A stretch of 64,000 bases of DNA, from assembly GCF_024700885.2 (NCBI RefSeq), contig NZ_CP117016.1, one strand, 5' to 3'. Every line of letters starts with the position of its first letter. Within the stretch, counting starts at the first letter, position 1. The stretch is from Escherichia coli. GTDB lineage: Bacteria > Pseudomonadota > Gammaproteobacteria > Enterobacterales > Enterobacteriaceae. The translations under genes and the position numbers were made by a program. Positions 27,835 to 52,045 of the stretch are shown here, piece by piece. The notes under the pieces were generated by a model. It had not been told where the DNA came from, did no database searches, and was given only the letters and a program-made list of their open reading frames with translations.

Positions 27835-27878
27835 AGACACGCTACCGCCCCTGGCTTTACAGCTACCAGAGCACTGCA
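27835..27878 (-). promoter_or_regulatory. JUMPstart element with ops site (RfaH loading site) for the O-antigen operon
   Basis: + strand cacgctaccgcc at 27838..27849 is the reverse complement of the ops consensus GGCGGTAGCGTG; the surrounding ~40 bp closely match the copy upstream of wza. Confidence 0.8.
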
Positions 27879-28134
27879 TGCATGCCTACGATGTAGCGAG
27901 CGTTACCCACTCGCGCTAAACCCGAAAAATTCAAACGCTAATTGTCTTACCAATCCGCTCTGGAAACAAGGAAAATCCTGGAAAACTTTGACTAAAATCC
28001 TATTGCTAACTCGTTGTTATTCTGATTGTTTATATAAAACAACGGCAGGAAAATTCGCAGCAAATTACTTTCGCCACGAATCTTCACTGCCGTTATAATT
28101 TTCTTATCAACCGTTACATTCGGTCAGATTTTCA

Positions 28135-29028
28135 TTATTCGCTTAACAGCTTCTCAATCCCTTTACGGAACTTCGCCCCTTCTTTCAGGTTGCGTAGTCC
28201 ATACTTCACAAATGCCTGCATATACCCCATTTTTTTACCGCAGTCGTAGCTGTCACCTGTCATCAGCATGGCATCAACGGACTGTTTTTTCGCCAGTTCA
28301 GCGATGGCATCAGTCAGCTGAATACGCCCCCATGCACCAGGCTGAGTGCGTTCAAGTTCCGGCCAAATATCTGCAGAAAGCACATAGCGACCAACGGCCA
28401 TGATGTCTGAGTCCAGCGTCTGCGGCTGATCCGGTTTTTCGATGAATTCAACAATGCGGCTGACTTTACCTTCACGGTCCAGTGGTTCTTTGGTCTGGAT
28501 GACCGAGTATTCAGAGAGGTCACCCGGCATACGTTTTGCCAGCACCTGGCTACGGCCCGTTTCATTGAAACGCGCAATCATGGCAGCAAGGTTGTAGCGC
28601 AGCGGGTCGGCACTGGCGTCGTCGATCACAACGTCCGGCAGTACCACGACAAATGGATTGTCACCAATGGCGGGTCGTGCACACAAAATGGAGTGGCCTA
28701 AACCTAAAGGTTCGCCCTGACGCACGTTCATAATGGTCACGCCCGGCGGACAGATGGACTGCACTTCCGCCAGTAGTTGACGCTTCACGCGCTGTTCAAG
28801 GAGAGATTCTAATTCATAAGAGGTGTCGAAGTGGTTTTCGACCGCGTTCTTGGACGCGTGAGTTACCAGGAGGATTTCTTTGATCCCTGCAGCCACAATC
28901 TCGTCAACGATGTACTGAATCATTGGCTTGTCGACGATCGGTAGCATCTCTTTGGGAATCGCCTTAGTGGCAGGCAACATATGCATCCCAAGACCCGCTA
29001 CAGGAATAACTGCTTTTAAATTCGTCAT
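28135..29028 (-). CDS. galF: UTP--glucose-1-phosphate uridylyltransferase-like regulatory subunit GalF
   Basis: Track ORF 28135..29040; start trimmed to [45 protein letters not shown]. Confidence 0.9.
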
Positions 29029-29202
29029 TATTTCATCCACCTGTAAAATGGTTGCTGAATTATAGCTTGTTCGATTTTTTTCGCCAGCATCAATTACCCT
29101 GAATTGATTACTGAATTACTTGTGATGTTACGCCGCTTCGTTGTGGATTGCAGTAGCATTGTTCCTAAGTATGGCTCCATTTTTCCAGGAATGGTCGCAA
29201 AT

Positions 29203-30597
29203 CTACTCCCTCCGTTCTGGCAATCTAAAGTTAATCTTCTCCACATTAACAATATGGTGATTAATCCTGTCGATATCGACGGAGATTTGTCCTTTTTCAT
29301 TCACCGCATGAACATTTGCAAGAGACAGCAGTGTTTCTTTTTTCGCCATAAACACGCCGCGAACGTCTTTGCGCATGTCAAAGTTCATGCTCAATGCGGG
29401 TCCAACTGAGGATTCCTGCATCACATTGATATTTCGCATAAAAAGATGTTGCGGTTTGTTGTGTAACTCCAGCGACGCACGCTTCATCTCAATGTTAGTC
29501 AGCGCCACAAAGGAGACAGCATTCCCGGCGGAGATTTGGATGCCGCGCAATTTATAAGCAAGATGAGTATTATCCAGTTGAATATCATTCACTCGGAAAT
29601 TCTGCGGTATCGAGAGATATTTGCCTTTAATTACCCCATAGCCGATTAACATCCCGGCACTATTAATCATTTCAATATTATCAATCACAAAGTTGTCACA
29701 ACCATAAATAGCAACTGTGGCGTTATCAATACCTGCTTTCTTACTGAAATCCGGCGTGATATTACGAGCTTTGATATTACGGATAACAAAATGTTTACCA
29801 TTTTCAACATGGATCAGTTGCCGACAATCTGATCCCGTGATATTCGCAACGACAAAGTTTTTCACTGCCTGGTTTTCCGGATAATTATTATCGTAAGTAC
29901 TTCCTGCCAGTCCTATGCCAATACCCCAGTTGATTTTGCCGTTAGTACAGTTGATGCGCTCGATGACATGGTCGGATATCAAAATGTCGCGATCATTGAT
30001 TGCTACATTCCATTCAATGGCGTCGCCCTGTAAGTCGCTGAACTTACAATTGGTGATGTTGGCACCGATAATCTGGTTATGAAATCCCTGGCGTAAAATG
30101 GCGTAATTAGCGTGGCTGACGGTCAGGTTATCGATGGTCAAGTTGCGCATGACGCGTTTATTTTTGCCGCCGATATAAATCTGCGTTACCGGGCCAAAAC
30201 CGCTCATCGCCAACCCTTTGATGATGCAGTCAGAACCGCGCACATCCAGGGTGATGTTATGCATACGGCCGCCCTTCTCCCCTGTCACCTGGCTGCCGTC
30301 TTGTAAGACAAAACGCCCTCTGCCGTTGCCGCGCAGGCTTCCAAGGATGTGCAACGTTTTGCCAGGAGGAATGAAGATGCCGGTGTTGATATTTTCACAA
30401 ACGAATCCGGCAGGCACGACGACCGTTTGCCCTTCGCTGAAGGCTTGTTTAAATGAGGCGATCCAGTCGTGTGGGTTGTAGTCGTTAATGTTAACGATTT
30501 GTCGGGCGGGAAGTGCACGGGCGAAAGGGGTATGGAGGAAGGCAAGCGCCGAGCTTGCCGTCAGGAAGGTGCGTCGGGAGAGTTTTTTAAATGGCAT
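29203..30597 (-). CDS. wcaM: Colanic acid biosynthesis protein WcaM
   Basis: 464-aa ORF with twin-arginine-like signal ([21 protein letters not shown]); last gene of the wca cluster by synteny. Confidence 0.85.
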
Positions 30598-30607
30598 ACG
30601 TTCTCCT

Positions 30608-50237: not shown

Positions 50238-50239
50238 TC

Positions 50240-50683
50240 TTATACCTGCTCTGCGTTCAATGCCTGCGCCCACTGGCGGGCAGACCGTTCAAGTAATGTG
50301 TACACCGCTGCAAACGTTTCCCGGCTTTTGCGATACGGATCGGGGATTTCACATTCGTTATCCCAGTGACCAAACAGCATCACTTTGCCGCGCATCTCGG
50401 GTGCCATCTCGCATAAGCGTTCGATATGGCGCTTTTCCATGGTCAAAATCAGGTCGTAGTTGCGACACAGGCGACGGCTGATTTGACGGGCACAGTGACC
50501 TTCCAGAGACAGTTGATGTTCTGCGGCGACGCTGATAGCGGTAGGATCAGCGCCCTTACCGACCAGCGCGCCGAGTCCAGCGGACTCCACTTTCAGCTCC
50601 GGGTGATAACGTTGCAGTAAGCGTTCCGCCGTCGGGGAACGGCAAATATTGCCGACACAGACAACTAAGATGTTGTTAAACAT
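50240..50683 (-). CDS. wzb: Low-molecular-weight protein-tyrosine phosphatase Wzb
   Basis: 147-aa ORF with the CVGNICRSP P-loop. Confidence 0.9.
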   Translation of the reverse strand: MFNNILVVCVGNICRSPTAERLLQRYHPELKVESAGLGALVGKGADPTAISVAAEHQLSLEGHCARQISRRLCRNYDLILTMEKRHIERLCEMAPEMRGKVMLFGHWDNECEIPDPYRKSRETFAAVYTLLERSARQWAQALNAEQV

Positions 50684-50688
50684 GACGA

Positions 50689-51828
50689 TTACCAGTTATG
50701 AATGTCGCTGGCTGTATCCGTCATGTAACGGACACCGCTAATAGTTGGCAGCAACTGATTGATCAGACGGTTCCAGCGGGAAACCGGGGCGGTGGTGACA
50801 TACACCACGTCATAAGGTTGCAGGCGGAATTCTGTCGCCATCACCAGCGACGTGGCATCGGACATATCCAGCTGGTAGATATTGGCAATCTTGCCGTTAC
50901 GCCCGCCCTCGCCTTTCAACGGACGAATGACAAAGATGCCGCTGGCGTTGGAGGTGGTCATGTCGATGCCTTCAGCATTACCCAGGGCTTCAGTCAGGGT
51001 CATACCGCTAAAGTCCATTTTCAGGGTGCTCTGTTTCTTCACTTCACCCATCACAAACACTTTCAGATCATCATTACGTGGCACGTAAAGAATATCGCCG
51101 GGGTAAAGCAGTCGGTTCTGATTGAGGTCGCCGTTTTGCATCAGCGCCTGCAAAGAAATGCGCTCTTCACGACCATTGTGTGTTAGCACCACGTTGCGCC
51201 AGTCAGCGGTGTCGGTCAGGCCACCTGCGGCGTTGATGGCATCGAGAATGGTCAGTGGCACGTTGGTAATCGCCTGTTGACCGGATTTATTCACCTGACC
51301 GGAGATATAGGCTTTTTGCGAGCGGAAGGCGGCGATATTAACGTCCACCTGCGGGTCAGCGATGTACGTCGCTAAGCGCCCGGTAATATCACTGCGGATT
51401 TCAGCGAGCGTTTTCCCCACGACGTGAACCTTGCCGATATACGGATAGAACATAGTGCCGTCAGGCTGTACCCAGTTGCCGGTGTCGCTGGAGCTGCGGT
51501 ACTGACCGGCTGGCGTGGTGAGTTCCGGGTGATCCCAGACGGTGACATTAAGAACGTCCCCCGGCCCGACGCGATACTGATAATTCGCGATCTCACTTTC
51601 CAGCGTCATATTGGGGCGCGCTACATTCGGGCGTGGGCGTAATTGATCAATCAGGCGCGGGGTCAACGGATAAACATTCACCATTTTGTCGAGATCGAAA
51701 TCAGCGTCCTGCTGTTTGATGACGTCTTTACCCATCGTCGACATATTGCTGCCCGGAAGTACTGTGCAACCGCTTATCAAGGTTACTGACACCAATAATG
51801 GCATCAATTTCATTTTGGATTTCATCAT
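50689..51828 (-). CDS. wza: Outer-membrane polysaccharide export lipoprotein Wza
   Basis: 379-aa ORF with lipoprotein signal ([11 protein letters not shown]). Confidence 0.9.
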
Positions 51829-52001
51829 TGTTTATTTATCACTTTGGCAGAGTAATTATCCTGTGCACTATTAATAGCAATGTCGCCATGCACATTTACC
51901 TTGCAGTTAATTGAATAAAAATTTAACTGGCATCAGTCCTAAAAAAATTGATTTCATCCGCAGGCTATTGACAGAATAATTCAGACTGGTCTTTCAGGCA
52001 T

Positions 52002-52045
52002 CCAGACACGCTACCGCCCCTGGCTTTTTAGCTACCAATACACTG
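52002..52045 (-). promoter_or_regulatory. JUMPstart element with ops site for the colanic acid (wza) operon
   Basis: + strand cacgctaccgcc at 52007..52018 (reverse complement GGCGGTAGCGTG); ~40 bp near-identical to the copy at 27835..27878. Confidence 0.8.

Follow-up and report, generated by a model that had tools for sequence, protein, structure and literature searches.

Two near-identical repeats in the segment of the Escherichia coli O15 chromosome analysed here (64,000 nt, hereafter the window) are very probably the canonical JUMPstart/ops leader elements of the his-linked polysaccharide region, which would load RfaH in front of the O-antigen and colanic-acid operons. This role of JUMPstart/ops is already known, and its recognition here has little discovery value: descriptions of the elements before both operons date back to the 1990s, and ChIP-seq maps of RfaH occupancy exist for both sites. 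The JUMPstart sequence reportedly goes back to Hobbs and Reeves in 1994, and the ops element is said to have been described by Bailey, Hughes and Koronakis in 1997. The window comprises his, wzzB, ugd, gnd, the O15 O-antigen cluster, galF, the colanic-acid cluster and yegH, with gene names as in the RefSeq annotation for NZ_CP117013.1, a 100%-identical genome. The rfaH gene, which belongs to the core genes of E. coli, lies outside the window. The features that carry the argument are the following:

27838..27876, minus strand: JUMPstart of the O-antigen leader (RF01707, 60.0 bits); its 3' 12 nt (27838-27849) are ops, GGCGGTAGCGTG
52007..52045, minus strand: JUMPstart of the colanic-acid (wza) leader (RF01707, 57.3 bits); its 3' 12 nt (52007-52018) are ops, GGCGGTAGCGTG
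29203..51828, minus strand: colanic-acid operon wza-wzb-wzc-wcaA...wcaM, 3' of the wza ops (annotation; Pfam for Wza)
28135..29028, minus strand: galF, the conserved gene separating both clusters (annotation; Pfam NTP_transferase)
16807..25169, minus strand: O15 O-antigen genes wzx, GT, wzy, fnlA, wbjC (fnlB), wecB (fnlC), GT4 and wbuC (annotation; Pfam for Wzx)

The colanic-acid operon is roughly 22 kb long, and the O15 O-antigen genes are low in G+C (29-42%).

The exact ops 12-mer occurs on the minus strand at the two listed sites and nowhere else in the window, and the degenerate consensus GGCGGTAGNNTG recovers the same two sites only, against 0.11 expected from shuffles. Thus, the proposal of the initial annotation that the 12-mer is present twice in the same orientation survives both careful alignment and comparison with the consensus. 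Both 12-mers satisfy GGCGGTAGnnTG, carrying C3-G8 for recruitment and T11 G12 as the pause dinucleotide, and both are identical to the 'ops12' oligonucleotide of Zuber et al. 2018 (PMC5995543), a study in which C3, G4, G5, T6, A7 and G8 were found to be needed for recruitment and T11 and G12 for pausing. The matches to RF01707 (JUMPstart; gathering cut-off 35 bits) are full-length in both copies, covering model positions 1-38 of 38. The copies had been described as near-identical with a few mismatches, and 34 of their 39 nucleotides indeed agree; the five mismatches, at positions 6, 7, 8, 17 and 18, all fall in the 5' half, while the 3' 21 nt and the TCT that follows are the same in both. A repeat search delimited a direct repeat of 42 nt (27835-27876 and 52004-52045, 88% identity). 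The intervals given previously, 27835-27878 and 52002-52045, were correct to a few bases, though somewhat offset against each other, the precise ones being 27838-27876 and 52007-52045. A chance repeat is ruled out, as the 12-mer and the degenerate consensus are confined to two sites and the repeat reaches 42 nt. Compared with the JUMPstart/ops element as it is known, a 39-nt element that ends in GGCGGTAGCGTG, lies on the coding strand of a polysaccharide operon leader and matches RF01707 over its full length, nothing of substance differs; the two copies in the window differ from one another at five positions.

Three further occurrences of the 8-mer GGCGGTAG were considered as ops sites and rejected, all being outside leaders and devoid of the pause dinucleotide. 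One lies within wcaI on the non-template strand (39337-39344, minus strand) and continues with GCGG, lacking T11 G12; another is antisense to yegH (52598-52605, minus strand), and the third (63950-63957, plus strand) is followed by CGCC. Intragenic sites of this kind bind no RfaH (Hustmyer et al. 2022, PMC9765446).

The O-antigen JUMPstart is invariant across the O15, O16, O157 and other leaders, with diverging flanking sequence, and the wza leader was found in 4,819 of 5,426 complete E. coli genomes. Since homology between serogroups stops at ops G12, the element marks exactly where the serogroup-specific O15 cluster begins at its 5' end; for annotation, it also fixes the strand and both leader regions.

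JUMPstart might instead act mainly as a structured 5' UTR RNA, through the stem-loop of the Rfam model, and not as a non-template DNA ops element. RF01707 does include a 5-bp stem, CUGGU/GCCAG, and the C8-to-U difference between the copies retains the pair as G-U; however, two copies and one compatible change do not amount to real covariation. Neither 39-mer folds better than its own shuffles (z = -0.03 for both), and the minimum-energy folds differ between the copies, that of the wza copy omitting the stem, though it can be drawn in both. In structural and biochemical work, moreover, ops acts as non-template DNA (PMC5995543), and any role of the upstream half of JUMPstart would be compatible with the ops mechanism. 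Lacking thermodynamic support, the RNA-structure explanation was rejected and is regarded as very unlikely.

Both ops elements are on the non-template (minus) strand, in intergenic positions 5' of minus-strand gene arrays, a placement that fits their reading as RfaH-loading sites. The wza ops is 179 nt 5' of the wza ATG (51828), and the O-antigen JUMPstart lies 259 nt 3' of the galF stop. As inferred previously, both clusters are transcribed on the minus strand, given the non-template position of ops and the orientation of all cluster genes. According to established RfaH work, RNA polymerase would start 5' of each element, transcribe into the leader and pause at ops U11, where the non-template GGCGGTAGCGTG would fold into a small, surface-exposed hairpin on the polymerase. 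RfaH would bind this hairpin and remain with the polymerase through the rest of the operon, excluding NusG, suppressing pausing and Rho-dependent termination, counteracting H-NS/StpA roadblocks and coupling the ribosome to the polymerase. The expected result would be expression of the distal genes in the colanic-acid operon and in the AT-rich O15 O-antigen operon. The wza unit would additionally be gated at initiation, being Rcs-activated and H-NS-silenced, and the O-antigen unit would be transcribed constitutively.

Published ChIP-seq data for E. coli CFT073, which has ops sites at the same two chromosomal positions, in the leaders 3' of galF and 5' of wza, support RfaH loading at these sites (Hustmyer et al. 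2022, PMC9765446). There, RfaH signal is seen at the wzx and wza ops sites and is lost in delta-rfaH, a strain in which RNA polymerase largely disappears from the wzx unit (RTR 0.1-0.34 or less). The wzx unit is strongly transcribed, with a sigma-70 peak at the predicted TSS 5' of its ops, while wza is silent in the wild type and acquires both its RfaH signal and an upstream sigma-70 peak only in delta-hns delta-stpA (PMC9765446). These observations bear on whether both clusters form one long read-through unit, in which RfaH loaded at wza is carried past wcaM and galF, leaving the second ops as no more than a re-loading site. From wza to wbuC, every gene points the same way, on the minus strand (annotation), and the consensus scan found no minus-strand terminator-like site 3' of wcaM or galF, the only one being inside galF. 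Nevertheless, the silence of wza alongside strong wzx transcription in CFT073 and the separate conditions under which the two sigma-70 peaks appear make a single unit extremely unlikely, and the conserved galF-to-JUMPstart intergenic region fits a separate promoter. As for the two separate RfaH-loaded units proposed in the initial annotation, RfaH loading agrees with strand, position and the CFT073 ChIP-seq; because no terminator-like site follows wcaM or galF, that the units are separate is argued from the sigma-70 and RfaH peaks published for that other strain.

The O-antigen promoter must lie between the galF stop and JUMPstart; the consensus scan gave no promoter candidate in the O-antigen leader. 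Two putative regulatory features were located around the wza leader:

52134..52161, minus strand: candidate sigma-70-like promoter of the wza leader, TGGAGA-16-CATAAT (weak consensus-scan match, proposed by inference)
52232..52245, no strand assigned: putative RcsAB-box-like sequence TAAGAATTATATTA, 5' of the wza leader, with one mismatch to the published box

The promoter candidate (52161-52134) would put ops about 110-120 nt into the transcript, and sigma-70-like matches are no more frequent than in shuffles. The RcsB box is quoted as TN(G/A)GAN4TC(T/C)NA (PMC7913699). Since the relaxed pattern searched is not enriched in the window, TAAGAATTATATTA is assigned as a putative RcsAB box by its position.

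The placement of the O-antigen element upstream of its operon is compatible with a leader position, but the element is not adjacent to the O-antigen genes: wzx starts 2,669 nt after ops, and about 2.58 kb of this gap is nested ISAs1 DNA, the one unusual feature of the arrangement, which had gone unmentioned. The pair of 1,291-bp ISAs1 (H-repeat-type) elements, 2.6 kb in all, begins 8 nt 3' of ops, with both copies in operon orientation:

27626..27829, minus strand: ISAs1 copy A, 5' part (204 nt); left inverted repeat CAGGGAAAGATTA beginning 8 nt 3' of ops; last bases are the 10-bp target duplication (TSD) ACAAGCCTGG
26335..27625, minus strand: ISAs1 copy B, intact (1,291 bp), inserted into copy A (inverted repeats and TSD; annotation)
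25238..26334, minus strand: ISAs1 copy A, 3' part (1,097 nt), annotated as an N-terminally truncated ISAs1 transposase

Copy B has the hallmarks of the ISAs1 family, namely terminal inverted repeats beginning CAGGGAAAGAT, a single DDE ORF and the 10-bp TSD ACAAGCCTGG; its transposase (26345-27481, 378 aa) contains Pfam DDE_Tnp_1 and DDE_Tnp_1_assoc. When the parts of copy A are rejoined without the TSD, the element regains a length of 1,291 bp and an ORF of 378 aa. This outer copy has no flanking target duplication. Between ops and wzx, the transcript would pass a stop-terminated remnant ORF of 25 codons, the copy B transposase and a 5'-truncated transposase remnant of about 1.1 kb, so that some 1.1 kb of IS RNA in this gap is probably untranslated. 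A scan of the minus strand inside the pair found a single weak terminator-like site (25690-25674).

In the O15 strain, RfaH-modified polymerase would therefore have to traverse 2.6 kb of nested ISAs1 DNA to reach wzx, whereas in CFT073 the wzx unit has its first start codon 40-67 nt from ops, the distance typical of efficient RfaH targets (PMC9765446). Because the gap is far longer than this and includes IS RNA that is probably untranslated, the coupling of ops to the O15 genes across 2.67 kb is assumed. The insertions may instead have uncoupled the two, with the O15 genes driven by a promoter that lies within ISAs1 or at its end and the ops at 27838 driving mainly transposase read-through, or nothing. 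This is considered unlikely, although the length and content of the gap speak for it, as do several minus-strand sigma-70-like hexamer pairs within the IS (for example 26337-26308 and 25909-25882); a long distance from ops to the start codon has also been suggested as a possible explanation of the weaker apparent effect of RfaH at hly (PMC9765446). The promoter-like matches, however, are not enriched (12 versus 8.5 +/- 2.6 in shuffles), JUMPstart/ops is intact in the O15 genomes examined except for a G1-to-A change in one, and RfaH is known to remain polymerase-bound over entire transcription units exceeding 10 kb (PMC9765446). With coupling assumed, we infer that the anti-polarity action of RfaH makes the ISAs1 insertion tolerable. 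The arrangement is a natural experiment on the distance, and the kind of sequence, over which RfaH-modified polymerase can sustain expression; on this basis, O15 antigen production should depend on rfaH to an unusually strong degree.

The retention of ISAs1 in O15 genomes, like its operon orientation, speaks for the main reading. The ISAs1 junction is present at ops in all three further O15 loci examined (NCTC86, 2273-PO3 and O15_8X), and O15:H12 2273-PO3 and O15_8X each have copy A alone and intact there. Among 99 genomes with O15 wzx, 93 match at least 80% of a 5.5-kb IS-containing query; of the genomes with the junction, one is named O15:H12 and another O15:H18. The main text of Iguchi 2014 and DebRoy 2016 does not mention O15 IS elements. 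Beyond O15, different ISAs1 variants occupy the same ops-proximal position in at least two further types of O-antigen cluster, one of the O167 family and one of the rfbB/acetyltransferase type. Outside E. coli, a combination of ops with an ISAs1 end was sought and rejected: GGCGGTAGCGTG-N(0-14)-CAGGGAAAGAT gave 0 matches in 100,044 species-representative genomes, and a relaxed pattern gave 43 matches in the same genomes, in unrelated phyla and none enterobacterial, which are treated as chance because a back-of-envelope expectation for 19 fixed bases in 298 Gb is similar.

Tentatively, the site 4-8 nt after the O-antigen ops could be one where ISAs1 (H-repeat-type) elements repeatedly land or are retained in E. 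coli, although this is doubtful. The idea draws on the different ISAs1 variants, their operon orientation and their presence in at least three unrelated clusters (O15, O167-family and rfbB/acetyltransferase), and also on the O15 outer copy without target duplication. If it is true, RfaH-modified polymerase, by avoiding polarity, would make the ops-proximal site uniquely insertion-tolerant; the IS could act as a portable junction at which entire O-antigen clusters are exchanged by recombination, and its transposase would become subject to RfaH-dependent read-through. H-repeat/ISAs1-family (ISEc1-like) elements in O-antigen clusters, such as that of Salmonella group D2 (PMC3715488), share with those in the window a position at the cluster edge, a single DDE ORF, a 1,291-bp length and CAGGGAAAGAT terminal repeats; the window differs in having a nested pair, 8 nt after ops and in operon orientation, whose outer copy is without TSD.

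The 12-nt RfaH-loading element ops (GGCGGTAGCGTG) has exactly two matches in the window, at 27838-27849 and 52007-52018, both on the minus strand. Searching with the consensus GGCGGTAGNNTG returns these two sites and no other, where 0.11 are expected from shuffling. Each match closes a 39-nt JUMPstart block:

27876 down to 27838, minus strand: O-antigen-side block CAGTGCTCTGGTAGCTGTAAAGCCAGGGGCGGTAGCGTG, 12-mer at the 3' end
52045 down to 52007, minus strand: wza-side block CAGTGTATTGGTAGCTAAAAAGCCAGGGGCGGTAGCGTG, 12-mer at the 3' end

The blocks differ at 5 of 39 positions, every one in the 5' half. 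They stay identical for three bases (TCT) past ops and then diverge, and aligning the two copies revealed no similarity upstream of the blocks. Both match the Rfam JUMPstart family RF01707 over its full length, at 60.0 and 57.3 bits (gathering score 35), and a chance repeat is excluded. The initial annotation's observation of two same-strand copies of an ops-containing repeat is correct, because the exact 12-mers, the consensus, the 39-nt alignment and the RF01707 matches all bear it out; the alignment against the ops consensus that it proposed left the 12-mer intact in both copies. Its coordinates were accurate to a few bases, although not exact. Thermodynamics gives no support to a role of the JUMPstart stem as an RNA structure (z of -0.03 for both copies, whose minimum-energy folds differ), although such a role may still apply to the 5' half.

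Recruitment of RfaH requires ops on the non-template strand, and both copies lie on the coding, non-template strand. The window 12-mer has the same sequence as the 'ops12' oligonucleotide of Zuber et al. 2018, for which recruitment needs C3, G4, G5, T6, A7 and G8, and the U11 pause needs T11 and G12 (PMC5995543); all of these bases are present. By the established mechanism, polymerase would pause at ops, the non-template strand would form a small hairpin, and RfaH would bind and then move along with polymerase, keeping NusG out, suppressing Rho-dependent termination and H-NS/StpA-enhanced pausing, and recruiting the ribosome. In strain CFT073, RfaH ChIP-seq signal starts at the wzx-unit ops; a delta-hns delta-stpA mutant shows it also at the ops of wza-wcaM, a locus termed cryptic for RfaH in which H-NS silences initiation. 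The signal is gone in delta-rfaH, and at a point 5.4 kb into the wzx unit, RNAP occupancy without RfaH is 0.1-0.34 or less of wild type (PMC9765446). RfaH loading, as initially proposed, is thus supported by published data at corresponding sites, not by the window sequence, and the JUMPstart/ops pair and its RfaH role are already known. An ops-like GGCGGTAGGCGG also lies inside wcaI (39333-39344, minus), on the non-template strand of the colanic-acid operon; the core contacted by RfaH is present there, the T11 G12 pause dinucleotide is missing, and intragenic sites of this kind bound no RfaH in CFT073 (PMC9765446). The further GGCGGTAG 8-mers in the window, all outside the leader regions and without the TG pause dinucleotide, were rejected as ops.

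Of 5,426 complete genomes of E. coli, 4,023 match the 300-nt stretch running from the galF stop to ops, and in non-O15 genomes the match ends precisely at the final ops base. The wza leader is found in 4,819 of the 5,426, almost always with at least 95% identity. When leaders from O15, K-12 (O16), strain MY504, O157:H7 and O15:H12 were aligned, that of O157 was hardly alignable, but CTGGTAGC..AAGCCAGGGGCGGTAGCGTG was invariant in the aligned leaders; beyond ops G12 the sequence is serogroup-specific throughout. As an invariant element amid diverging flanks, JUMPstart/ops is therefore conserved as its surroundings are not. The O-antigen ops is the 5' boundary of the variable O-antigen cluster, and it is because JUMPstart marks this edge that it serves as a PCR anchor (PMC4732683). 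In strain O15_8X (L005, ~7240-7251; alignment column 114), ops position 1 is changed from G to A (AGCGGTAGCGTG); all the remaining aligned genomes retain GGCGGTAGCGTG.

The gene map was taken from the RefSeq annotation of E. coli MLI114 (NZ_CP117013.1), which is 100% identical over a 5.5-kb window query.

Gene content of the window (RefSeq annotation)
to 12645, plus strand: his operon
12742-16689, minus strand: wzzB, ugd, gnd
16807-25169, minus strand: O15 O-antigen genes, wbuC to wzx
25248-27481, minus strand: two ISAs1-family transposase genes
28135-29028, minus strand: galF
29203-51828, minus strand: colanic-acid operon, wcaM back to wza
52487-54070, plus strand: yegH

Pfam scans agree with the annotation for Wza, Wzx, GalF and both transposases. 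The O15 cluster is AT-rich, with 29-42% G+C versus ~53-56% across most of the colanic-acid cluster.

The sole feature deserving a further look is a nested ISAs1 pair 8 nt past the O-antigen ops, together with its recurrence in other clusters. This ops is not immediately before the O-antigen genes, a point that the initial annotation missed. It is followed by TCTAGGGG, and at 27829 an ISAs1-family element opens with its left inverted repeat, CAGGGAAAGATTA... The pair (H-repeat/ISEc1-like) spans 25238-27829 on the minus strand, in operon orientation, between ops and wzx.

Nested elements (script)
27829-27626, resuming at 26334-25238, minus strand: ISAs1 copy A
27625-26335, minus strand: ISAs1 copy B, 1,291 bp, interrupting copy A

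Copy B encodes an intact 378-aa DDE transposase, and a perfect 10-bp target duplication, ACAAGCCTGG, borders it on both sides. Removal of copy B and one duplication copy restores copy A to 1,291 bp with an intact 378-aa ORF; the two are 95.5% identical, and the script found no target duplication flanking copy A. Because the pair intervenes, wzx starts 2,669 nt from ops. The first ORF past ops is a 25-codon remnant 153 nt downstream, and ~1.1 kb, the 3' part of copy A, is probably without efficient translation.

Intact copy A occurs alone at an identical junction in O15:H12 2273-PO3 and O15_8X, and the nested form is therefore derived. Of 99 genomes with O15 wzx, 93 match the 5.5-kb query, IS included, over 80% or more of its length, which is consistent with the nested form in those genomes; direct inspection revealed it in Escherich's NCTC86. 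Since the IS is retained at the junction in all three further O15 loci examined and O15 appears in the names of some IS-carrying genomes, transcription would presumably get to wzx via the IS. We infer that the anti-polarity activity of RfaH makes this read-through possible; it is quite improbable that the O15 cluster is now driven from a promoter within the IS. In NCTC86 (L003 1338-2373), the same O15 cluster with nested IS has fnlA annotated as frameshifted and a shorter truncated copy A gene, which suggests that the cluster is decaying further in that lineage.

A 51-nt probe over the ops/IS junction and a 231-nt probe, whose partial matches were joined across gaps of up to roughly 600 nt, showed that ~155 of 5,426 genomes have a like-oriented ISAs1 5' end near JUMPstart, versus 99 with O15 wzx. 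Inspection identified two non-O15 cluster types with such an element.

Ops-proximal ISAs1 in other loci (operon orientation)
L004 5949-7229 and L005 5949-7229: single copy, O15 strains
L010 2148-3430 and L011 2890-3512: O167-family and rfbB/acetyltransferase clusters

The ISAs1 in an O169:H41 strain (O167-family wzx) begins after TCTAGGG; it is decayed, has an internal deletion and belongs to a different sequence variant. In PigCaeca_1, an ISEc1-like copy begins 83 nt past ops, before acetyltransferase genes and rfbB. An O23 strain has ops and TCTA without an IS. Scans of species-representative genomes did not find the ops/ISAs1 junction outside E. coli. Three readings would fit this recurrence: the site is permissive, it is a hot spot for insertion, or whole clusters are exchanged by way of the IS.

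Scanning the wza leader gave one sigma-70-like candidate promoter (52161-52134), and an RcsAB-box-like TAAGAATTATATTA lies ~110 nt upstream of the start predicted from it; the O-antigen leader gave no convincing candidate, and such scans place neither promoter with confidence. Opposite the wza leader, RefSeq annotates a 49-aa hypothetical protein (52137-52286, plus), probably an over-call, that overlaps the candidate promoter and the RcsAB-like box. Both clusters are transcribed on the minus strand, as initially stated, wza-wcaM and wzx-wbuC being annotated there. The accompanying claim of two separate units agrees with CFT073 sigma-70 and RfaH data and rests on them, since scanning downstream of wcaM and of galF found no terminator-like site on the minus strand.

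Several other elements lie in the window:

2629-2703, minus strand: enterobacterial sRNA STnc240 (RF02074, 68.2 bits)
4631-5133, minus strand: yefM-yoeB toxin-antitoxin pair
5442-5565, plus strand: His operon leader (RF00514, 131.6 bits)
37571-37620, minus strand: algC RNA motif (Rfam RF02929, 78.2 bits), cpsB/cpsG gap of the colanic-acid operon
54145-54763, plus strand: RelE/ParE-family toxin and HTH antitoxin pair, between asmA and yegH
58323-61641, plus strand: dgcE (diguanylate cyclase), frameshifted/pseudogene in the annotation of the 100%-identical genome

The RelE/ParE-HTH pair is strain-variable cargo beside the colanic-acid locus.
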